DNA of 62,220 nucleotides from an uncultured Thermoleophilia bacterium (GCA_903862845.1 CAIOZS010000112.1:1-62220), one strand, 5' to 3'; numbered from the stretch's first letter, positions 14,151-50,968 are shown. Translations and numbers: made by a program. The notes: generated by a model from the sequence alone, not told the origin.

Positions 14151-14266
14151 CCGAGCTCCTTCCACTCGTCCATACTTGACTGCACGCCGTTGGGGCCGCC
14201 GGGGAGCCCCCTCTCGTCCCGGGACGAGCCCCTTCGTCCAACACCAGGAGAGCACTGGGAAGTGGC

Positions 14267-15751
14267 ATGAGCGAACCCGTTCCATCCGAGCCCGGAGTGA
14301 GGAGCCTGAAGAGGGCGCAGGTCCGCATCATCACCGTCTTCTTCATGATCTACATCCTCGTTTCGGGCGGCTCGTTCGGCATCGAGGACATGGTGTCATC
14401 GTCCGGGCCGGGCCTGACGCTCCTCCTCCTCATCCTGCTGCCGATCTTCTGGAGCATGCCGATGGCGCTCATCGCCAGCGAGCTCGGGTCGGCACTGCCC
14501 GGCGAGGGCGGCTTCTACGTCTGGACGCGGCGCGCGCTCGGCGACTTCTGGGGTTTTCAGACCGCCTGGTGGTGGTCGCTCTCGATCTTCGTCGACTCGT
14601 CCGTCTACATCGTGCTCGGCGTCGGCTACCTGCAGAACTGGCTGGGCTTCAGCCAGCTCTGGTTCTACGTGATCTGCTGGGCCATCATCGCCGTCTTCGC
14701 GACCATGAACATCATCGGCGTGAAGCTCATCGCGCTCAGTTCGACGCTGTTCTCGATCCTCATCCTGGCGCCGTTCTTCGCGCTCATCGTCGTCGGCCTG
14801 GCCAAGTGGAACTTCAACCCGCTGACCCCGGTCACGGTGCCGGGCGCGCCCCTTTTCGGCAGCGGCGGCGTGTTCGCGCTCGGCCTCGCGATCGGCGTGT
14901 GGATGTATTCGGGCTACGAGTCGATGTCGACCCTTTCGGGCGAGATCCGCAACCCGCAGAAGATCATCCCGCGGGCCCTCATGCTGGCGGTGCCGTTCAT
15001 CATCATCATGTATGTGCTACCCACGCTCGCGAGCCTCGCCGGGTACGGCCACTGGGACAGCTTCGCGACGCAGGCCGGCGACGGCTACGTCTCGTTCGTC
15101 GAGATCGGCAAGTCGCTGGGTGGCTCTGCGCTCGGCGTCGCGCTCCTCGCCTCGGCGCTGCTCGGCAACCTCGCCCTCTACCTCGACTACCTCGCCTCCG
15201 GCGCCCGCCCGCTGTTCGCGATCTCGGCGGACGGGCTGTTTCCCAAGTCGATCTCCATCGTGAGCAAGCGCTTCGGCACGCCGATCGCCGCCATCCTGCT
15301 CATGGCCGCGCTCAACGCGGTCCTCATCGTCGGGCCGTTCCAGAACCTCGTGGTGATCGACGTGATCCTCTTCATCTCCGCCTACGTGCTCATCTTCATC
15401 TCGGCGGTGCGCCTGCGCATCAAAGAGCCGAATCTCAAACGGCCCTTCCGCGTGCCGTTCGGCACCGCCGGCATGGTGGCGATGGTCATCCCGCCGATCC
15501 TCATCGTCATCTTCACGATCTACGTCAACGCCATCGACCGCAGCACGACGATCTTCGGATTCACAGGCTTCAGGTTGCTCGGCATCGACGTGGGCTGGTA
15601 CGGCATCGCCGGATTCGTCGCGCTGCTTTCCGGCCCGGTGCTGTACTCCGTGTTCCGGGCCATCTACGGCGGGCCGCGCAACCCGTCGCGCGAAGCCGGC
15701 AACGAGGCGCTCACCCTGGCCGAGGCCGAAGCCGCCGAGGACGCCGCCTGA
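14267..15751 (+). CDS. APC-family amino acid/polyamine permease
   Basis: About 12 hydrophobic segments; GGSFGIE, ELGSALPGEGGFYVW, GYESMSTLSGEIRNP, LRIKEPNLKRPF. Confidence 0.9.
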   Translation: MSEPVPSEPGVRSLKRAQVRIITVFFMIYILVSGGSFGIEDMVSSSGPGLTLLLLILLPIFWSMPMALIASELGSALPGEGGFYVWTRRALGDFWGFQTAWWWSLSIFVDSSVYIVLGVGYLQNWLGFSQLWFYVICWAIIAVFATMNIIGVKLIALSSTLFSILILAPFFALIVVGLAKWNFNPLTPVTVPGAPLFGSGGVFALGLAIGVWMYSGYESMSTLSGEIRNPQKIIPRALMLAVPFIIIMYVLPTLASLAGYGHWDSFATQAGDGYVSFVEIGKSLGGSALGVALLASALLGNLALYLDYLASGARPLFAISADGLFPKSISIVSKRFGTPIAAILLMAALNAVLIVGPFQNLVVIDVILFISAYVLIFISAVRLRIKEPNLKRPFRVPFGTAGMVAMVIPPILIVIFTIYVNAIDRSTTIFGFTGFRLLGIDVGWYGIAGFVALLSGPVLYSVFRAIYGGPRNPSREAGNEALTLAEAEAAEDAA

Positions 15752-17184
15752 TGCAGACCCGGATCCAGATCCTTTCGGAGGCCGAGAAGGCGCAGGTCCA
15801 CGAGCGCACGCTGAAGGTGCTCGGCAGCGTCGGCATGCGCTGCGACACCTCCGAAGGGCGCCGGATCCTGGCTGCCGCCGGCGCCCGAGTCGACGAGGCC
15901 ACGCGCATGGTCCGCTTCCCGCCCGAGCTCATTGAGCGCTCACTGGCTCAGGCGCGCAAGGAGTTCACCGTGCACGGCCGCCGACCGGGCTGGAGCTTCC
16001 CTCTCAACGCCGGCGAGTCCACGCTCCTCGCCGACGGCGGCGCCACAGCCGTCTTCGACGCCGCCACCGGCGAGCGCCGGCCCACGACGCACGCCGACTG
16101 GCTGGCCGCCACCCGGCTTCACGATGCGCTCGACGACGTCGGCTTCTACTGGTGTCCCGTCGACTACGCCCTCGACTACGAGCAGCCGGGCGGCTTCGTG
16201 CGCTACTACGCGGACGTGTTCGCCACCTTCGGCAAGCACGTGCAGGATTCGTTCGGCACGCCCGCGCTGGCGCCGTGGCTCAAAGAGGTGCTCGACATCG
16301 TGTTCGGCAGCCGCGAGGCCGTGCGCGAGCAGATGCCGTTCTCCTTCCTCATCACGCCCGCGTCTCCGCTCACCATCGAGCACGACTTCACCCAGACCTG
16401 GCTCGAGCTGCGCGACTACGGGCTGCCGGTGGCGATCATGCCGATGCCCCTGCAGGGCGCCACAGCGCCCGGCAGCCGGCTCGGCACCCTTCTGGCCGCC
16501 AACTGCGAGACTATCGGCACGCTCTGCCTGGTGCAGGCCGCGGCGCCGGGCACGCCGGTCATCTACTCGCCGGTGATCGCGACGATGGATCCGCGGTCGG
16601 GGTCGTATGCCGCCGGCGCCGTCGAGCACGCCGTGCTCTGCGCCGCCGGCACCGAGATGGCCCGCTACTACGGCCTGCCGGCCGAGTCCTCAGGCCTCTG
16701 CACCCAGACCTACGAGCCCGACCTGCAGACCGCGTGGGAGAAGGCCAACGGGGCGCTCCTCATCACCCTCTCAGGCCCCGACGTGCTGGTCGGTCCCGGC
16801 CTTCTGGGGGGTGCGACGATCCTCTGCCTCGAGCAGATCGTCATGGACGTCGAGATGATCCGCCTCGCCCGGCAGGCGCGCGCAGGCATACCGGTGCGCG
16901 AAGATCTGTGGCTCGACGAGATCCTCGACAAGGTCGGGCCCTGCGGCTCCTTCCTCGGCGAGCGCTCGACGCGGCAGAACGCCCGCCGCGGCGAGTGGCG
17001 CCTGAGCGACCTCGGCGTGCAGGGCAGCTGGGACGCCTGGCAGGCGGCGGGGTCGCCGACCACGGTCGCCGCCGCCCGTGAGCGCGTCGAGCAGCTTCTG
17101 GCGGGCCAGGTTTCGCTGCCCTACAGCGACGGCCAGGCCGCGGCTCTGGCGGATCTGCAGCGCCGCGCCGACGCAGCGTCCTAA
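15751..17184 (+). CDS. MttB-superfamily corrinoid methyltransferase, non-pyrrolysine
   Basis: ATG overlaps the permease TGA (TGATG); LSEAEKAQVHERTLKVL, PASPL, GATAP, YYGLP, EQIVMDVEMI; no in-frame TAG. Confidence 0.88.
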   Translation: MQTRIQILSEAEKAQVHERTLKVLGSVGMRCDTSEGRRILAAAGARVDEATRMVRFPPELIERSLAQARKEFTVHGRRPGWSFPLNAGESTLLADGGATAVFDAATGERRPTTHADWLAATRLHDALDDVGFYWCPVDYALDYEQPGGFVRYYADVFATFGKHVQDSFGTPALAPWLKEVLDIVFGSREAVREQMPFSFLITPASPLTIEHDFTQTWLELRDYGLPVAIMPMPLQGATAPGSRLGTLLAANCETIGTLCLVQAAAPGTPVIYSPVIATMDPRSGSYAAGAVEHAVLCAAGTEMARYYGLPAESSGLCTQTYEPDLQTAWEKANGALLITLSGPDVLVGPGLLGGATILCLEQIVMDVEMIRLARQARAGIPVREDLWLDEILDKVGPCGSFLGERSTRQNARRGEWRLSDLGVQGSWDAWQAAGSPTTVAAARERVEQLLAGQVSLPYSDGQAAALADLQRRADAAS

Positions 17185-32922: not shown

Positions 32923-33165
32923 TCAGACGACGCCGGTGACCTTGAGGTAGATCACCAGCGCCAGGATGGCGAGCAGCACGACGAGCGTGACGATGCGCTG
33001 GGTGCTCCAGCGGGCGCCTTTCTCGCGGGGCGCCTTCCAGCTGGGCTCATTCTCGTGGTCGTGAAGCTGCGCCGCGGAGAGGTTCATGCGGATGGATTGC
33101 TGGGCGCCCAGCGTGCCGCGATTCAGCTCTTCGCCGCTGACGTCCTTGCGACCTGTCTCCTCCAT
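32923..33165 (-). CDS. Small membrane protein
   Basis: ATG overlaps the upstream TGA; RBS GGAGGAGG; C-terminal TM. Confidence 0.65.
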   Translation of the reverse strand: MEETGRKDVSGEELNRGTLGAQQSIRMNLSAAQLHDHENEPSWKAPREKGARWSTQRIVTLVVLLAILALVIYLKVTGVV

Positions 33166-34451
33166 CACGGTCCCTCCTCCACTGGCAGTCGCTCGTCGCA
33201 CCACACTACACCCGGGAACGGGCGTAGGCAGTGCGGGTGCCAGTTGGCCTGGCAGTAGGCGCCGACGCCCAGGAGGGCCACGATGTCGCCCTCTTCGAGG
33301 GGCGGCAGAGGGTAGTCCTCGGCGAAGATGTCAGGGCCTTCGTTGATGTGGCTGGTCAGCGTGAAAGTGGACGTGCGCGGAGCGTCGGCGGCGCGGCACA
33401 GCACCGTCTCGACGAGCTCCCTGTAGATGAAGGCCAGGTGCATCACGTTCCATCCGCAGGTGAGGCCGGCGAAGACGGCGCTGCCGTCGCCGGCCCTGCT
33501 TCTGTCTTCCACCGTGACCACCTCGGCGAGCAGCACCGCGGCGTTCTTGCAGAACATCTCGCCGGGCTCGCAGGCGATGGTCACGCCGAGGGGACCGAGG
33601 TGCTCGGCGAGGATGCCGGCGTAGGCGTCCAGGTCGAGCGGCCGCTGGCCCTGCCGCATGACAGCGGCGAGGCCGCCGCCGGCGTTGACCTCGCGCAGCG
33701 GGCAGCCGGCGTCGATAGCGCGCCGCGCCATGGCTGCCGCGGCCGCGGCGGCGCGCTCAAACGCCGGCAGGTCGTCGTCCAGAAGGTGATGGCTGACGTG
33801 AAAGTGGATCGTGTCGATCGTCAGATCGTAGGAGCGGGCCACGGCGATGGCCTCGTCGAGGCGCTCGGGGTAGATGCCGAACTTGGTCGGCGCGTCGCCG
33901 CTGTAGTAGCTGATGCCGCTCTCGGGGCGGGCGGCGCTGACGCGGGGGTTGATGCGCATGCCTATCGTGCCCCCGCGATTCCTCCGTCCGTAGCGGTGGA
34001 TCTGGCTGATGAGGTCGAGGTTCACGTGCACGCCGTGCTCGAGGATCACGTCGAGGTCGCGGTCGCTCACGTTGGTGCCCGTGTAGCTGATCACGGCGGC
34101 TGGGAAGCCGTGAACGAGGCCGTGCTCGACCTCGCCCGGCGAGCAGACGTCAAGGCCGACGAAGTGCGGAGTGCCGGGCGCGCCGAGTGCGCGGACGCGC
34201 GCCAGAACCTCGGGCTCGCGCTGGCTCTTGAGCGCCCAGCGGACCTTCCACGGCAGACCGGTGCGCGCCATCGCCCCTTGCAGGGCGCGCACGTTCTCCT
34301 CAATGTGCGTGATGTCGTAGATGAAGAGCGGCGTGCCGTGCTCACGGCCGAGCGTCTCGGCGTCGCGGCCGGCGACGAGCAGGCGGCCGCCCCGGGCCAC
34401 GAGGCCCGGCCGCTGCCACCAGTCGCGCGGGTGGTCGTCACGCGTGGTCAT
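33165..34451 (-). CDS. PLP-dependent group IV decarboxylase, LysA-like (paralog 1)
   Basis: [13 protein letters not shown] (PLP Lys), CSPGE, TKFGI, HFH, NAGGG, EPGE, GAY. Confidence 0.85.
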
Positions 34452-34644
34452 TTCGCCTCGCTTCGTCTCGCCCCCTCTTGCACGCTGTCACAGAGTGTCT
34501 CGCGGCGGCGGCTCTTCGCGCAAGGCCGGACCGCGCTGCGGGTTTGACGACGGCACCCCAGCGGGCAGAATCGCCCGCGACGGCGTCGCCGTGCAAGCGA
34601 CGCCCTTCACTGTGCCCACGGTTCCGCAAGCGAGGAGGCCGACC

Positions 34645-36352: not shown

Positions 36353-36474
36353 GCGGCAAGCGTGACGGCCCGAGGGCGGCGGCGCAAGCCGCCGCCCGAG
36401 GGCTGGCAGGCGGACGTTCGCCTGTGATTACCTTGGCGGGCACCATCGACCCCCACCACCGGAGGAGGCAGGGC

Positions 36475-37944
36475 GTGAAACGCAATCTGTTCGCCGGCCG
36501 CAGGCGCAGCGGCGGCATCGGCCTCGACGTGTTCACCGACGACGAGATCCAGGACGTCCATCTCGCGACCCTCGAAGTGCTGGAGCGCACCGGGGTGTGG
36601 GTGGAGATCGACGAGGCGCTCGACATCTTCAGTGACGGGGGGTGCGTAGTCGACCGCGAGTCGCACACCGTGAGGATCCCGCCGCACCTCGTGGAGGACG
36701 CCATCCGCAGCGCGCCCGCCAGCATCACGCTGTGCGGCCGCGACCCGGCCAACGACATTGTCATCGGCGCCGGCCGCGTCGGCTTCAGCAACTTCGGCGA
36801 GGGCGTCATGGTCGTCGACCCGTACAGCGGTGAGCTGCGATCGTCCACCAAGCAGGACCTCAGCGACATCGCCAAGCTCGTCGACGCGCTGCCCGAGGTG
36901 GACGTCTTCGAGATCGCCGTCGGCGCCGGCGACATGCCGCCGGCGACGGCTTCGATCCACAACCACGAGGCGGCCATCGCCGGGCAGACCAAGCCGATCT
37001 CCGGCGGGCCGCTCGACGGCCGCGCCGTGCGCATCAGCCTGGCCATGCTCGAGGCCGTGCAGGGCAGCGCCGACGCCGTGCGCGAGCGGCCGATGATGAT
37101 CATGGGCACTTGCCCCGTGAGCCCGCTGAAGCTGGTGAGCGATTGCTGCGAGATCGTCATCGAGGCGGCGCGCGCCGGGGTGCCGAGCTGCGTGCTCAGC
37201 ATGGCCATGGCGGGCGCTTCCGGCCCCGTCACGCTCGCCGGGACGCTGGTCACCCACAACGCCGAGGTGCTCGCCGGCATCGTGCTGGCGCAGCTCACGG
37301 AGCGCGGCGCCAAGGTGCTCTACGGCTCGTCGACGACCGCCATGGACCTGCGGCTGGCGGCGGCCTCCGTCGGCTCGCCGGAGTGCGCCCTGATCAGCGC
37401 CGGCGTGGCCCAGCTCGCCAGGCAGTACCGCCTGCCGAGCTACATCGCCGGTGCGTAGGGCGACAGCAAGCTCAGTGACGTGCAGACCGGTCACGAGAAA
37501 ACCCTCACGGCCTTGATGGCAGCGTTGGCAGGGACCAACCTGATCTACGGCCTGGGAATGATCGAGTCGGGCGTCACCTTCGACTACGCGCAGCTTGTGA
37601 TCGACGACGAGATCGCGCGCATGGTCAAGCAGGTCGTCGGCGGCATCCGCGTGAGCGACGAACGCCTCGCGGTCGACGACATCGCGAGAGTCGGCGCGTT
37701 CGGCGACTTCCTAAGCCTGGATGCGACCATGGCGCACATGCGCGAGCAGTCGCAGCCGAAGCTCATCGACCGCCGCGTGCGCGAGGACTGGGAGGAACGT
37801 GGCGGCACCGACATGTATCAGCGCGCCCAGGTCCGGGCCCGCGAGATTCTCGAGACCCACGTGCCCGAGCCGCTGCCCGACGACGTGCGGCAGCGGGTCC
37901 GCAAGATCGTGGGCGACGCCGATCGCGAACTGGCCGGCGCCTGA
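36475..37944 (+). CDS. mttB: Trimethylamine:corrinoid methyltransferase, pyrrolysine-containing (in-frame TAG 37456-37458, codon 328 of 489)
   Basis: RBS GGAGGAGG before GTG 36475; CPVSPL, LSMAMAGASGPVTLAGTLVTHNAEVL, YGSSTT, VGSPE; ...YRLPSYIAGA-TAG-GDSKLSDVQTGHEKT... stays in frame and matches the Pyl site of methanogen MttB (LPSYVAGS-O-SDAK...GHEKT). Confidence 0.95.
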
Positions 37945-37946
37945 CG

Positions 37947-38618
37947 TCAGTCGAGCAGCCAGTCCTTACCGGTCGCGAGGTGCGTGCGCAACGCGTAGCC
38001 GCCGCTGGCAGTGACCGAATAGCCGAAGTCGCCCGTCGCCTCGCTCTGCGTCACGGCGGCGTGCGTCCAGGGGTTCTGTGGCCAGACCGGCACGCCGGGC
38101 TGCACGCCCACGGGCCCGCCGCTCGCTACGTCGGCCGCGGCCGGGGCGACCCCGGCGTGCGTGCGTGCCCACATCTCCACGTACTGTTGCAGCAGGGCCA
38201 GCCCCGCCTTGGTAGATGCGTCGCGCTCGTCCCTGAGCCAGCCGGGGACTCCGCCGCTGACCTTGTACGAGCCCTTGGAGAGGTGGCCGACCAGAGTGTA
38301 GCCGCTCAGGTCGGCTTTCACTTTGTACGTGTAGGTGCCCCTCGAGGTGCCGGGCGCCATTGTTCCGCCGGTCCAGGGGTTGCCCGGCCAGACCGGCGCG
38401 ACCAGAGCGCCGCCCTTCACCACGTCGCTGCGCGCCGGGAACACGAAGCCGTTGCTCTGGGCCTGGGTGTTGATGTAGCCCTGCAGGAGCAGGATATTCA
38501 TCTGCACCTGTTTGTCGACGAAGCTCACGGCCGCGCTTGCGGCGGCCGGCAGCGTAGCGGTGGCAGCCAGGACGGCGACGAGCACGACGAGGAGGATGCT
38601 GAAGCGGCGCGTTCTCAT
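37947..38618 (-). CDS. Secreted protein with two pseudopilin (GspG)-like WPxNPWT domains
   Basis: RBS GGAGG, Sec signal peptide ending ...AAASA; internal repeat VWPGNPWTG / VWPQNPWTH. Confidence 0.75.
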   Translation of the reverse strand: MRTRRFSILLVVLVAVLAATATLPAAASAAVSFVDKQVQMNILLLQGYINTQAQSNGFVFPARSDVVKGGALVAPVWPGNPWTGGTMAPGTSRGTYTYKVKADLSGYTLVGHLSKGSYKVSGGVPGWLRDERDASTKAGLALLQQYVEMWARTHAGVAPAAADVASGGPVGVQPGVPVWPQNPWTHAAVTQSEATGDFGYSVTASGGYALRTHLATGKDWLLD

Positions 38619-38809
38619 GGGTGCCTCCAGGGGGGACGGCAGAGTGTCGCCCAAGTCTGGCCGGGGCGCCGAGACCGGTCAAGCGCACTTCGCGGCACGG
38701 GCACCCAGCCGCCGCGTGCCGGGGCGGAGCCGCGGCGCCTGATACGATGCCTCCATTGGCGCCGCGGGCTCGCGGCCGGCGCGCCAGCGACGCGAACGAG
38801 GTGATGCCG

Positions 38810-40195
38810 GTGGAAGCCAGGATCCCGACCCGCATGGGCGACGGTTTCATGGTCGAGATGACGCGCAGCGAGCTGCGCGCGGACATCCAGGTGGCCAGCG
38901 AAGAAGCGGCGCGCAGGGCCCGGGTGCCGCCGCTCACGGCCGACGAGCAGGCGCACCTGCTCGACATCTACGCGTCTCCGGCGGCCTTCACCGCCGTCGA
39001 TATCGGCGACCAGGTCGTGCTGAGCTGCGATGGCGGCGGCAGCAAGATGACGGGCACGGACATCCAGGACCTCCTGGAAAGCGAGCAGCGCCTGGGCCAG
39101 GACATCCTCGAGCTTTGGCATATCGAGTACAGCTACAAGGCGATCAAGACGATCCTGCCGTTTCAGCAGCAGGTGATGCAGAACGCGCAGCTGATGCTCA
39201 CGGCACCCATTCAATACGGCGCGCAGCCCAACCTCGCTTTCTACAGCAAGCCCGACGGCCCGGCCAGCAACTGGTTCGAGCTGCTCCCCAAAGGGGACAT
39301 CGCCGGAGCGCGGGCAGCCATCGACGAGGCGATGGAGCACGCGACGCAGGACATGGTGTACGTCACGGGCGGCATGATCGAGGCCGGCGCCGACGGTGTC
39401 GACTTCGACACCACCGGAGGCGCCGGCGACGGCGACTTCCTCAGCACCCTGCGCGCCGTGAAGCACGTGCGCGAGAAGTACCCGGAGGCCGGCATCGAGC
39501 TGGGCATGGCCGGCGAGCTCGTGATCGGCGTGCACGGCGAGCTTGAGTGGGAGGGCCGCCGGCTCGCCGGCCTGTGGCCACGCGAGCAGCTCGAGGTGTG
39601 CCAGGACGCCGGCGTCACCCTGTTCGGGCCGGCGGTCAACATCCGCACCAGCAAGAGCTGCGCCTGGAACATCGCCTACTCCCTCACGGTCATCAAGCCG
39701 TGCATGGAGGTGGCGCGCATCCCCGTGCACCCCAACGTCGGTGAAGGCGTGTGCGGCGTGCCGGTCAACGGCTATCCGCCCGAGGACGCCGCATCGCGGG
39801 CGGCGAAGGCCTTGGTCGACATCCTGCGCTGCGACGGCTTGTAGGTGGGCTCGGGTGACTCCCGGGGAATGGACGTCACCCACGCGCTCGCCGCAGGCAT
39901 GGGCGGGATGCGCACGGCCGGAGACCTGGTCGCGCGCATGCAGATGTCCCGTGGGATGCGCTTGAAGGAAGCCAAAGACTACGTGGCCGGCAAGCTCGGC
40001 TGCACGGTTCGCGACCTCAGTGACAGCTATGCGATGGAGCAGATCCGGGGGGAGAAGGGCCTGGGCCGGATCCTCGACCACTCCAACCTCCACCCCGGCG
40101 AGCCCAACGCGATGATGGCCAAGTTCCGCATCGCCGAGCTGCTCGGCATCCGCATCAACTCGGTCGACAAGTTCAGGGACCTGGCGGGACTGTAG
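38810..40195 (+). CDS. mtbB: Dimethylamine:corrinoid methyltransferase, pyrrolysine-containing (in-frame TAG 39842-39844)
   Basis: TRMGDG, HIEYSYK, YGAQPN, PDGP, GADGVDFDTTGGAGDGD, GMAGE, LAGLWP; ...ILRCDGL-TAG-VGSGDSRGM...GMRTAGDLVARMQ matches MtbB (GVDGI-O-IGVGDPLGM...GDLVARM); start 38810 or 38804. Confidence 0.93.
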
Positions 40196-40667: not shown

Positions 40668-40835
40668 CCGTCGGCTGCCTCCTGATACCTCGCCGCGAGC
40701 CGCGCCCAAACGTCCTCGTCGCGCCAATCGCTGAAGGAAGGCGCCCCTCGCGCCGATAGAGAAGCTGGCCGGCGGAGGACGCGCCGGCCGCGAGGGCCGC
40801 TCGTAGCGGCTGCCGGCAAAGACGGAGGAATGTGC

Positions 40836-41213
40836 ATGAGACGCGTCGTGAGCATCGCGCTGCTGGCGCTTCTGGCGCTCGGGGTCGCCGGCGCGATGGC
40901 CGCCTGTGGCACGAAGGACATCCAGACGCCCACCGCCAACATCGACGTGGCCAAGAACCTGGCCGCGAAGGGCGAGATCATGATGGTGAAGACGGGCGTC
41001 GCCGCCTACGTCGCGACCAACGGCACACTCCCGGCGACGGCGACGCAGGACGTGCTCGGCAGCTTCGTGGACCCCTGGCCCAAGAACCCCTGGACCCAGG
41101 CCCCGATGGCGCAGGGCACGCAGTCGGGAGACATCGCCTACACGCCGGGGGCCGGCACGAGCTACACGCTGGGCGTGGTGCTCGCCGACGGAAGCGTCTT
41201 CGCCGCCCCCTGA
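40836..41213 (+). CDS. Lipoprotein with pseudopilin (GspG)-like WPxNPWT domain
   Basis: RBS GGAGG; lipobox-like MAA-C; DPWPKNPWTQAPM. Confidence 0.75.
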   Translation: MRRVVSIALLALLALGVAGAMAACGTKDIQTPTANIDVAKNLAAKGEIMMVKTGVAAYVATNGTLPATATQDVLGSFVDPWPKNPWTQAPMAQGTQSGDIAYTPGAGTSYTLGVVLADGSVFAAP

Positions 41214-42454: not shown

Positions 42455-43831
42455 TCAGGCGCCGATGATCTTCTTGACCATGGAGGCGCGCCGGGACGGA
42501 CGGCCGCTGCGCGCTTCGTAGTCGTCGGCGCCGGCCATCGCTTTGAGCGAGGCGTTCACTCCCAGCCAGCGGAAGGGCTCGGGTTCCCATGCCTTGGAGC
42601 GATGGTTCACCCACGGCAGCCTCGTGAGATCGCTCTGCTCGCCGAGAATGAGATCGCGAAGCGTGCGGCCGGCGAGGTTCGTGGTGGCCACTCCGTCGCC
42701 CACGTAGGCGCCGGCCCAGGCCATGCCGGTCTCCTTCTCCAGGCCCACCGAGCAGTTCCAGTCGCGAGACGCGGCGATCGCCCCGCCCCAGCGGTGCGTC
42801 ACGCGCACGTCGCCGATCTGCGGGAAGAGGGCGCCAAGGAGGTCGCGCAGATGGTCCTGCACCGCAGGCACACGCTCGAAGGCCTCGCTGAGACGCGAGT
42901 TGAAGTGGTACGGGGCGCCGCGGCCGCCGATGGCGATGCGCCCGTCGTCGGTGTGCATCGCGTAGAAGATGAGGTGGCGGAAGTCGCCGAAGACCTCGTG
43001 GCCCGACCAGCCGACCTCATCCCAGAAGGAGTCGGGGAGCGGCTCGGTGCCGATCATCAGCGAGTAGATCGGCACCACGTGCCGCTCGTAGCCGGGGAGC
43101 AACGGCGTGAACGCCTCGGTGGCACGCACGACGACCTCGGCCGATACCGCGCCGAAGGGTGTCTGCGCCCGGTGCGGCGCCAGTGAGGTGACGGGGGTGC
43201 GCTCGTAGATGGGCACCCCCAGCCGCTCCACGGCCTCGGCGAGGCCGCGCGCCAGGCGAGCCGGGTCGACGGCGGCGCCGTGCGACGTGTAGCCGCCGCC
43301 GAGGCACCCGGCCACCCTGAGGCGGGCGCGCATCTCGGCGGCGCCGAGCAGCGCATAGTCGTCCTCGCCAAAGCCCCATGAGCGCTCGTACTCGAGGGCC
43401 TCGCGGGCGCGCAGGAGCTGCACGGGAGTGGTAGCGAGGTCGAGCTGGCCGCCGATGTGGAAGCGCGCGTCGATGTGCTCCTCGGCGACCACGCGCGCGA
43501 TCTCCGGGACAGTGGCGTAGAGCGCCCGCTGCTGATCGATCACGGCCTGCCGGCCATGCGTCTCGGCGGCGCGCTCGCGCGAGCCGGGAAAGGTCGTGTG
43601 ACACCAGCCGCCGTTGCGTCCCGAGGCTCCGAAGCCGGCGATCTCCTTGTCGAGCACAGCCACGCGGAGCTTGGGATCCGCCCTCTTCAGGTAGTAGGCG
43701 GTCCACAGCCCCGTGTACCCGGCGCCGACGACGGCAACATCGAGGTCGATGGGACCGGCCAGAGAAGGCCGCGGGGCAAGCTCGCCGGGCACGCCGTCGA
43801 GCCACATGCTGCGGGAACGGTAGTCGGTCAT
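42455..43831 (-). CDS. FAD-dependent oxidoreductase (DAO/PuuB-like amine oxidase)
   Basis: VVGAGYTGLWTA, GASGRNGGW, WGG, WEPEPFRW. Confidence 0.9.
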   Translation of the reverse strand: MTDYRSRSMWLDGVPGELAPRPSLAGPIDLDVAVVGAGYTGLWTAYYLKRADPKLRVAVLDKEIAGFGASGRNGGWCHTTFPGSRERAAETHGRQAVIDQQRALYATVPEIARVVAEEHIDARFHIGGQLDLATTPVQLLRAREALEYERSWGFGEDDYALLGAAEMRARLRVAGCLGGGYTSHGAAVDPARLARGLAEAVERLGVPIYERTPVTSLAPHRAQTPFGAVSAEVVVRATEAFTPLLPGYERHVVPIYSLMIGTEPLPDSFWDEVGWSGHEVFGDFRHLIFYAMHTDDGRIAIGGRGAPYHFNSRLSEAFERVPAVQDHLRDLLGALFPQIGDVRVTHRWGGAIAASRDWNCSVGLEKETGMAWAGAYVGDGVATTNLAGRTLRDLILGEQSDLTRLPWVNHRSKAWEPEPFRWLGVNASLKAMAGADDYEARSGRPSRRASMVKKIIGA

Positions 43832-49642: not shown

Positions 49643-50911
49643 TCAGCGTCCCGGCGTCCCGACGCTGGAGGCGCGGTCCGCGAAGAAGAGCGCGCCGGCC
49701 CGCGGGCGGCCGCAGTGATCGGTCCACATGCTCTGACTGTAACCGCCGGCGCTCACCATGGCGACGACATCGCCCTCGGCGACCTGCGGGAACGGGACGT
49801 CCTCGCCGAACAGGTCGTCGCCCTCGTTGATGTGGCCGGCGAAGGTGACGCGCTGCGTCGGAGGCGCGTCGGCGCGCCCGCACACGACGTACTCGAGGTC
49901 GCGTCCGTACAAACGGTGGTCGTTCATCACGTTCCAGCCGCAGTCCAGACCGACGAAGGTCGTCCCCATGCGCCGTTCGACGGTGACGACTTCGGCGAGC
50001 AGCACGCCGGCCTCGTTCGTGAGGAGCTCGCCGGGCTCGACGCCGACGGCGACGCCGAGGTCGCCGAAGTGCCGCGCCAGGATGCCGGCGTAGGCATTGA
50101 GATCGAGCCGCCGCTCGCCGTCGTGCAGCGGCGTTCCCAGGCCGCCGCCGACGTTGACCTCTTTCAACGGGCAGCCCGCAGCGATGAGCCGGCGCACCAT
50201 GCGTTGGGCAACGGCGAGCGCCTCGTCGAAGGCGGGAAGCTCATCGTCCAGCATCCCGTTCGCCAGATGGAAATGCGCCGTGTCGATGGAGAGGCCGTGA
50301 CCCGCGGCGCGTGCCACGGCCTCCTCGAGGTCCTCCTCGTAGATGCCGAACTTGGTGGGCCGCGCGCCGGCGTAGAGGCTCTGGGCATGGCCGCGCATGA
50401 CGCCCGCGCGCGGGTTGATGCGCAGCCCGAGCGCGCGTCCCGGGCAGCGGCGCCCGACGCGGTCGATCTGGGTGAGCAGGTCGACGTTGATGTGAAGCGG
50501 GAGCGGAGCGATGACGTCGAGGTCGCGCTCCGAGACGTTGGTGCCCGTGTAGCTGATCTCCTCGGGCAAGAAGCCGCACTCGAGCGCGTGCAGTACCTCG
50601 CCCGGCGAGCACGCGTCGAGCCCGACCGCGGCCGGGTCGCCGGGAGGGCCGAGGCTGCGCAGGAGGCGTAGCGCGGGCTCGTCGCGCAAGGCCTTCATGG
50701 CGAGGCGGACGCGGGGGGTCAGGCCGGCGCGCGCGAGCGCGTCGCGGAGCGCGACGGCCTGCGCGCCGATGCGCCGCAGGTCGTAGACGTACAGCGGCGT
50801 GCCGTGCTCGCGGGCAAGCGCCTCGGCGTCGCGTCCCGCGACCAGCAGGCGCCCGCCCTCGATGCGCATGCCTTCGTGCTCCCACGGGAGCGGTGTGCGT
50901 GGCTTGACCAT
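49643..50911 (-). CDS. PLP-dependent group IV decarboxylase, LysA-like (paralog 2)
   Basis: [43 protein letters not shown]. Confidence 0.85.
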   Translation of the reverse strand: MVKPRTPLPWEHEGMRIEGGRLLVAGRDAEALAREHGTPLYVYDLRRIGAQAVALRDALARAGLTPRVRLAMKALRDEPALRLLRSLGPPGDPAAVGLDACSPGEVLHALECGFLPEEISYTGTNVSERDLDVIAPLPLHINVDLLTQIDRVGRRCPGRALGLRINPRAGVMRGHAQSLYAGARPTKFGIYEEDLEEAVARAAGHGLSIDTAHFHLANGMLDDELPAFDEALAVAQRMVRRLIAAGCPLKEVNVGGGLGTPLHDGERRLDLNAYAGILARHFGDLGVAVGVEPGELLTNEAGVLLAEVVTVERRMGTTFVGLDCGWNVMNDHRLYGRDLEYVVCGRADAPPTQRVTFAGHINEGDDLFGEDVPFPQVAEGDVVAMVSAGGYSQSMWTDHCGRPRAGALFFADRASSVGTPGR

Positions 50912-50968
50912 GGGCGGAGAGTATCGCAGGCGGCTCGTGCGGTGGAACCTGACCGGCCGGGCGGCTGC

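Follow-up and report, generated by a model that had tools for sequence, protein, structure and literature searches.

The mtbB locus and its reading frame

The stretch of DNA analyzed here, hereafter the window, is a contig of 62,220 nucleotides (GCA_903862845.1 CAIOZS010000112.1:1-62220; contig C112) with a G+C content of 70%. It belongs to the metagenome-assembled genome (MAG) of an uncultured Thermoleophilia bacterium, which comprises 4.38 Mb in 352 contigs and is 94% complete. On its plus strand, the window carries a gene of the MtbB family (PF09505/TIGR02368), the family of the [dimethylamine--corrinoid protein] Co-methyltransferase characterized in Methanosarcina, with an in-frame TAG codon inside the gene (Table 1). 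Our analyses leave little doubt that this is one real MtbB-family methyltransferase gene, decoded with pyrrolysine (Pyl) at the internal TAG, and that it is part of a conserved subfamily labeled almost only as Thermoleophilia.

The first-pass annotation of the window had proposed that this TAG joins two open reading frames (ORFs), 38621..39844 and 39845..40195, into a single gene. This holds: both ORFs share one frame and are parted by the TAG, the match to the Pfam family profile runs across it without interruption, and the codon is kept in relatives. The Pfam profile, named beforehand as a check, matches over practically its full length (PF09505, Dimeth_Pyl: 528.5 bits against a cut-off of 25, covering positions 4-462 of the 463-position profile without a break), and the joined product reaches 392.2 bits on NCBIfam TIGR02368, with a cut-off of 369.1. 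Read-through gives the translation ...LRCDGL-O-VGSGDSRGMDV..., where O stands for Pyl, and ends at a second TAG (40193-40195), for a product of 463 residues from ATG 38804 or about 461 from GTG 38810. The GTG, also the start position given in the first-pass annotation, seems the likelier start, because a Shine-Dalgarno-like GAGG lies 8 nt upstream of it and because the TAG comes after 344 residues in most database orthologs, as expected of a start two codons past the ATG. Residue numbers in this text run from ATG 38804 (minus 2 for the GTG start), so that the motifs CDGGGSKMTG, ELWHIEY and VGEGVCG are located at 75, 103 and 312, respectively.

Table 1. Features of the mtbB locus and signature positions of its product. 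Residues are numbered from ATG 38804; "clade" refers to the window clade and "others" to the remaining MtbB sequences compared.
Feature	Position	Strand	Remarks
mttB, trimethylamine methyltransferase type, upstream of mtbB	36424..37944	+	own TAG 37456-37458; TIGR02369 702 bits (cut-off 525); PF06253 330 bits; start codon uncertain
orfX, small protein, hydrophobic N-terminus, WPxNPWT-type motifs	37947..38654	-	between mttB and mtbB
GAGG, Shine-Dalgarno-like	38798..38801	+	8 nt upstream of GTG 38810, read from sequence
mtbB-family gene with internal UAG	38810 (GTG) or 38804 (ATG)..40195	+	PF09505, TIGR02368, AlphaFold2 model
Signature 86, Arg to Asp	39059..39061	+	Asp 44/44 clade, Arg 64/69 others; charge reversal, after strand-1 loop
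Signature 108, Asp to Glu (ELWHIEY)	39125..39127	+	Glu 44/44 clade, Asp 68/69 others
Signature 121, Glu to Gln			Glu in others, Gln in clade
Signature 145, Gly to Ala			Gly in others, Ala in clade
Signature 206, Ala to Gly			Ala in others, Gly in clade
Signature 214, Ala to Ser			Ala in others, Ser in clade
Signature 292, Arg to Tyr/Phe (WNIAYSL)	39677..39679	+	Tyr 36, Phe 7, His 1 of 44 clade; Arg 69, Lys 1 of 70 others
Signature 314, Met to Glu/Gln (VGEGVCG)	39743..39745	+	Glu/Gln 44/44 clade, Met 70/70 others; loop after strand 7
Signature 321, Met to Val			Met in others, Val in clade
TTG (Leu), rare codon immediately 5' of UAG	39839..39841	+	kept at nucleotide level
In-frame TAG, read as pyrrolysine	39842..39844	+	residue 347 from ATG 38804, 345 from GTG 38810
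orfY, smaller orfX relative, hydrophobic N-terminus, WPxNPWT-like motifs	40830..41213	+	downstream of mtbB; in 48/60 loci
FAD-dependent amine oxidoreductase (DAO family)	42455..43831	-	convergent with mtbB; PF01266 187 bits; opposite strand in 43/60 loci

Conservation of the internal UAG codon

Species-representative genomes yielded 60 related loci, labeled Thermoleophilia (48), Actinomycetota or Actinomycetes (11) and Deltaproteobacteria (1). Five of them stop short of the Pyl site, and all of the 55 that reach it have TAG there. Likewise, each of the ten mtbB paralogs of the genome contains exactly one TAG, always at the same DG[LY]-O-[VI]GxGD motif. Retention of the codon in 10/10 paralogs and 55/55 related loci implies that it is not there by chance. 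Of the 59 loci with an mtbB match, 55 give a single tblastn alignment that extends across residue 347, and the sequence VGSGDSRGMDV that follows Pyl is invariant across 54 clade loci, whereas its SRGMDV part varies in the other paralogs. The codon after the TAG is GTG in 46 of the 55 loci but GTC, GTA, GTT or GCG, none of them a start, in the other nine. A restart after the TAG is thus not conserved, which argues against separate expression of the downstream half from GTG 39845, a possibility raised in the first-pass annotation.

The immediate context of the codon is also maintained. TTG precedes it in 53/55 orthologous loci and in all nine genome paralogs that have Leu at this position, TTG representing approximately 4% of Leu codons (crude gene set, 1618 of 39329). 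Such a pattern resembles selection acting on the nucleotide sequence 5' of the UAG; the neighboring mttB has GCC, not TTG, before its own TAG. Synonymous-codon entropy, calculated over 44 orthologs, averages 0.59 along the gene and is lowest (0.12-0.29) at codons 97-126 from GTG 38810 (~39100-39190). Downstream of the UAG, at codons 349-366, it is 0.32-0.35, which is not the gene minimum, so that by synonymous-codon entropy only, there is no specific signal of an element resembling a pyrrolysine insertion sequence (PYLIS). TAG also closes 415 of the 1683 crude long ORFs of the genome (about a quarter), as well as mtbB itself here and in 33 of the 55 orthologs; in this organism, UAG thus serves as a sense codon as well as a frequent stop.

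A Thermoleophilia clade with its own signature

Searching 5.8 billion clustered proteins gave 360 matches, including ~55 clusters with 71-96% identity to the window protein. Beyond these closest clusters, identity drops to 58-66%, the range of other paralog clades. The orthologs, found at 54 loci in as many related genomes with 76-94% protein identity, come from uncultured soil and lake bacteria, nearly all labeled Thermoleophilia. The motif VG[E/Q]GV[C/G/V]G is present in 54 of the 55 loci reaching the site, the exception (L067, 59% identical) having VGMGVGA. In a FastTree phylogeny of 125 N-terminal parts (10 of 135 sequences were dropped for odd length), rooted on a homolog without Pyl (P0010), the sequences with Glu or Gln at position 314 (55 of the 125) form one clade of 56 leaves with an SH-like support of 0.996, and the sole exception inside it, P0212, is frameshifted at that point. 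Outside the clade, Met314 occurs in 69/69 sequences, Arg or Lys at position 292 in 69/69, and Asp108 in 68/69. A second, profile-free search, of 1.84 billion representatives, gave 574 matches; among the 150 matches listed, Tyr292 and an intact VG-E-GV were seen only in clade fragments, and the other Glu or Gln calls at 314 lay in frameshifted or atypical stretches.

In an unbiased scan, 44 clade sequences and 70 other MtbBs were compared for positions conserved within both groups yet differing between them. Nine positions emerged, all replaced in the window protein, with a consensus residue in at least 87% of the 69-70 others. The clade residues of Table 1 fit all 44 sequences, bar one sequence at two of the nine sites. 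These positions are conserved sites found in this analysis rather than a published family definition. Arg354, shortly after Pyl, is invariant in the clade.

The first-pass annotation had suggested a distinct MtbB subfamily, and a monophyletic clade with its own signature at 314, 292 and 108 bears this out; the substitutions are not common in ordinary bacterial MtbB, as the counts outside the clade indicate. The cues on which that suggestion was based fared unevenly. In ELWHIEY, Glu108 is a genuine clade marker, but Trp105 is also found in other sequences. In the GEGVCG stretch, Glu314 is a genuine marker too, but Cys317 is not: the clade itself has Cys, Gly or Val there, and Cys occurs outside it as GMGVCG. 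The N-terminal loop described as missing is indeed short in this protein, but this is no property of the clade, being common to all 118 short-loop sequences of the tree and to 8 of the 9 genome paralogs covering the region. The long loop is kept only in the C189/P0005 type and in other long-loop representatives.

MtbB paralogs, pyrrolysine machinery and candidate methyl-transfer partners

The host genome gives 11 Dimeth_Pyl matches, corresponding to 10 genes, because one gene is divided between contigs C199 and C88 and accounts for two of the matches. The full-length paralogs are 45-67% identical to one another, and the window copy is 54-61% identical to the other short-loop paralog clades. 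The same expansion is seen across the genus, with MtbB matches in 35 of the 36 genomes drawn from it (2-20 each, every match listed having one TAG); among 24 genomes from other families of the class, one has an MtbB match. Public gene calls end the window-type protein at the TAG, at 344-346 residues, and because gene callers end all such proteins there, the radiation is easily overlooked in standard annotation. At least three Pyl-mttB/mtbB pairs exist in the genome: the one in the window and those on C88 and C259, where mtbB paralogs adjoin further Pyl-mttB genes (TIGR02369 735 and 621 bits). More generally, the neighbors of the other paralogs (C88, C259, C277, C232, C20, C189) include Pyl-mttB, non-Pyl MttB, TetR or AsnC regulators and a corrinoid protein. 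On C232 two mtbB genes lie back to back, and the assembly tends to break at mtbB paralogs. The homolog used as root, P0010, comes from the representative library and is a full-length MtbB relative of 463 amino acids in which Trp takes the place of Pyl (...VDMLWATTGDP...). At 379 bits, it narrowly passes the TIGR02368 cut-off, and it may represent a non-Pyl branch of the MtbB family.

The genome encodes a complete Pyl machinery. Contig C180 carries tRNA-Pyl, pylSn, pylD, pylC and pylB, and contig C15 carries pylSc, PylS being split. All these proteins score above the curated cut-offs (PylSc 310, PylSn 120, PylD 207, PylC 337 and PylB 441 bits). A tRNA-Sec is also encoded. Methyltransferases are numerous, with 38 MttB-family matches, six of them with TAG and ~30 being non-Pyl MttB homologs, together with one Pyl-MtmB and one non-Pyl MtmB homolog. 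The mtmB gene on C264 has a corrinoid-protein gene directly downstream. As for possible methyl-transfer partners, there are 29 B12-binding matches, several in frames of ~220-245 amino acids, five URO-D-type matches, four of which lie beside corrinoid genes by coordinates, and two matches of the RACo/RamA type.

Predicted structure

An AlphaFold2 model built from a 79-row alignment (pLDDT 93.5, pTM 0.93) predicts a TIM barrel with residue 347 in strand 345-348 (strand 8). A sequence search of the Protein Data Bank (PDB) copy available to us gave no chain related to the window protein, and no MtbB sequence relative, and Foldseek against the PDB recovered generic TIM barrels only (TM 0.27-0.39). 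In a wide structural search, the top solved folds were barrels of corrinoid or methyl transfer, which match model residues 67-388: the homocysteine domain of MetH (Z 17.4, rmsd 3.4 over 246 aligned residues), 4ay7, a methyltransferase from Methanosarcina mazei (Z 17.4), and BHMT (Z 16.1). In the model, signature sites 86, 108, 145, 206, 314 and 321 map to loops or helix starts after strands 1, 2, 3, 4 and 7, which would correspond to the catalytic face of the barrel; this mapping is based on the DSSP secondary-structure string of the model.

Genomic neighborhood

The mtbB gene is preceded by a canonical Pyl-mttB and followed, on the opposite strand, by an oxidoreductase gene, with orfX between the two methyltransferase genes and orfY and orfZ downstream of mtbB. 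An mttB ortholog (at least 60% identity) on the same strand was found in 30 of the 60 related loci, and in all 29 of these also showing an mtbB match it lies upstream of mtbB. These and the other synteny counts are lower bounds, as flanking sequence was covered up to 6 kb and a good number of contigs stop early. The orfX homolog occurs on the opposite strand in 43/60 loci, with several matching stretches between mttB and mtbB in related loci, and orfZ is present in 21/60. None of orfX, orfY and orfZ has a Pfam match even at an E-value of 5, and orfX and orfY also lack any NCBIfam match. The best NCBIfam match of the flavin adenine dinucleotide (FAD)-dependent oxidoreductase is TIGR03329, at 228 bits against a cut-off of 632.8.

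The window also encodes two LysA-like, pyridoxal-phosphate-dependent decarboxylases on the minus strand (33165-34487 and 49643-50968), scoring 166 and 200 bits against the diaminopimelate decarboxylase cut-off of 298. The first of them is syntenic with the mttB-mtbB block in 12/60 loci. Farther away, a non-Pyl MttB-superfamily gene (15748-17166, plus strand; TIGR02369 298 bits, below the cut-off of 525) directly follows a permease gene of the amino-acid or ethanolamine type (14180-15751). No specific clue to the substrate comes from these neighbors, the LysA-like decarboxylases, the DAO-family oxidoreductase and the permeases all scoring far below specific cut-offs.

Proposed function and alternatives

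The internal UAG is most likely decoded as Pyl by the genome's own tRNA-Pyl, split PylS and PylBCD, giving one polypeptide of ~461 residues. This polypeptide belongs to the MtbB (dimethylamine:corrinoid) family of "MT1" methyltransferases and is predicted to fold as a TIM barrel. Following the Pyl-imine adduct chemistry of characterized Pyl methyltransferases, the Pyl residue, located on the last barrel strand, would add the amine nitrogen of the substrate at its ring imine to form a methylammonium-like adduct, from which the Co(I) of a small corrinoid protein, probably encoded elsewhere in the genome, would accept the methyl. A URO-D-type MT2 would then pass the methyl on, and RamA-type activators would keep the corrinoid reduced.

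The simplest reading of the gene is that of a corrinoid methyltransferase for dimethylamine (DMA) or a DMA-like compound, an identification that we consider somewhat probable. DMA is the default substrate because a canonical Pyl-mttB, which would release DMA, is usually found upstream of the gene, and the protein passes the TIGR02368 equivalog cut-off. Several observations nevertheless weigh against it. The genomes that share the mttB-mtbB synteny are close relatives, and common descent could be enough to account for it. On TIGR02368, the window copy ranks last of the eight full-length paralogs (392 versus 406-511 bits), no more than 23 bits above the cut-off. Nine conserved positions, including two arginines and one methionine, are replaced in the clade, with a net loss of positive charge. 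The 62-kb window contains no corrinoid-protein gene (0 of the 29 B12-binding matches lie on C112 and no such domain was found among its ORFs), although the placement of mtbC beside the methyltransferase gene, the arrangement known for mtbB in Methanosarcina, is common and not a strict requirement. By contrast, a fragment of a canonical long-loop (C189-type) paralog on C20 does have a corrinoid-protein gene directly downstream. Finally, the ten paralogs, 45-67% identical, stay in separate clades across species, which is hard to explain if all of them use DMA. Many of these points would fit an alternative in which enzyme type and Pyl chemistry are the same but the substrate of the clade is a secondary N-methylamine other than DMA. 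In that case, the adjacent Pyl-mttB would act on the matching tertiary amine, and the pair would strip two methyls from R-N(CH3)2. Judging from the sequences compared, we see this as a serious possibility, if not the outcome that we would expect. The nine-site signature and the low family score are consistent with it, and a predicted catalytic face that has lost two arginines and acquired acidic or polar residues (six of the nine sites map to this face in the model) would suit a more cationic or bulkier R. The paralog radiation and the separate Pyl-mttB/mtbB pairs point in the same direction, and the "true" DMA enzyme could be the long-loop paralog that adjoins a corrinoid gene. Against it, the equivalog cut-off is still passed, the neighbors offer no specific clue, and the invariant Arg354 suggests that the lost arginines might merely be relocated. 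Furthermore, Pyl is, to our knowledge, tied to three substrates only, mono-, di- and trimethylamine, and we know of no Pyl methyltransferase shown to use others. A broader and more speculative idea, which we hold tentatively and think less likely than not, is that the genus turned Pyl methyltransferases into a multi-substrate toolkit in which the window clade serves a non-DMA secondary N-methylamine.

Two further explanations question whether a functional full-length enzyme is made at all. If the TAG were a true stop, the protein would be truncated at ~345 residues and the last 116 codons would be untranslated or begun at GTG 39845. The frequent use of TAG as a stop in this genome, the GTG that follows it in the window and most related loci, and the public gene calls all agree with such a truncation. 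However, the family profile crosses the TAG unbroken, the codon and the sequence after it are conserved, the next codon is a non-start in nine loci, the complete Pyl machinery is present, and a product cut at this point would, according to the model, miss the Pyl-bearing barrel strand and everything after it. RNA-library contigs from two metatranscriptome studies (X18 records 17 and 18, X16 record 4) also extend across the TAG, by at least 31 nt in either direction, a point tempered by their being assembled from ~90%-identical relatives, not from this organism, by possible DNA content, and by their silence on amounts and transcript ends. Taken together, this makes truncation extremely improbable. 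Scarcely better is the prospect that the gene is a decaying or non-catalytic paralog under relaxed constraint after duplication, as its family score and the replacement of residues conserved in the comparison sequences might indicate. Frame, TAG and signature are kept in orthologs at 54 loci, the replacements are themselves conserved, and most loci have no frameshift, these being restricted to some (e.g., L030, L041, L047, L049), so that we judge decay very unlikely.

Whether or not the substrate is DMA, ~ten Pyl-MtbB paralogs per genome are kept by a lineage that is common in soil, peat and lake sediment, with one clade remodeled at conserved positions. This matters for identifying the bacteria that compete with methanogens for the methylated amines of wetlands. 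A shifted substrate, if true, would for the first time extend the natural substrates of a Pyl-dependent enzyme beyond mono-, di- and trimethylamine, and the clade, being clonable, offers a concrete way to test whether the role of the 22nd amino acid reaches to further amine demethylations.

Comparison with known systems

The window protein resembles MtbB in its full-length profile match, the single UAG at DG[LY]-Pyl-[VI]GxGD, a length of ~460 residues and the predicted TIM barrel. It is ~40-44% identical to the long-loop representatives P0003-P0006, and its loop after strand 1 is 12 residues shorter; their "canonical" status was judged from profile scores and from motifs known for MtbB, the tree containing no named Methanosarcina sequence. 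Compared with canonical MtbB, the gene differs in the nine replaced positions, in having no adjacent corrinoid gene and in its bacterial host with split PylS. The other short-loop paralog clades of the same genome and genus (C277, C293, C259, C172, two on C232, C88) share with it the short loop, the Pyl motif and MttB-family neighbors, but they keep Arg86, Asp108, Arg292 and Met314 and score 406-464 bits on TIGR02368, as opposed to 392 here.

Non-Pyl members of the MttB superfamily act on quaternary amines, including glycine betaine and others, and they provide a precedent for substrate diversification through many paralogs per genome, the present one having 38 MttB-family matches. They differ in belonging to another family (PF06253) and in lacking Pyl, which the window protein retains. 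A full-text literature search, with subscription journals outside its coverage, gave no description of an MtbB paralog radiation, of the clade signature or of a non-DMA substrate of MtbB. Pyl methyltransferase genes in Actinobacteriota are nevertheless already known, since MAGs of this phylum from Stordalen Mire are reported to express Pyl-encoding mttB and mtbB (PMC10805028, the one relevant paper that the search turned up). The passages of that study available to us treat these genes as specific for tri- and dimethylamine, also cite the activity of non-Pyl MttB members on quaternary amines, and do not mention paralog clades or a signature. As far as those passages go, the Stordalen Mire genes and the gene described here belong to the same phylum and the same gene families, and the label of one of our orthologous loci, L052 (isolate palsa_647), matches palsa, a habitat named in the same paper (PMC10805028).

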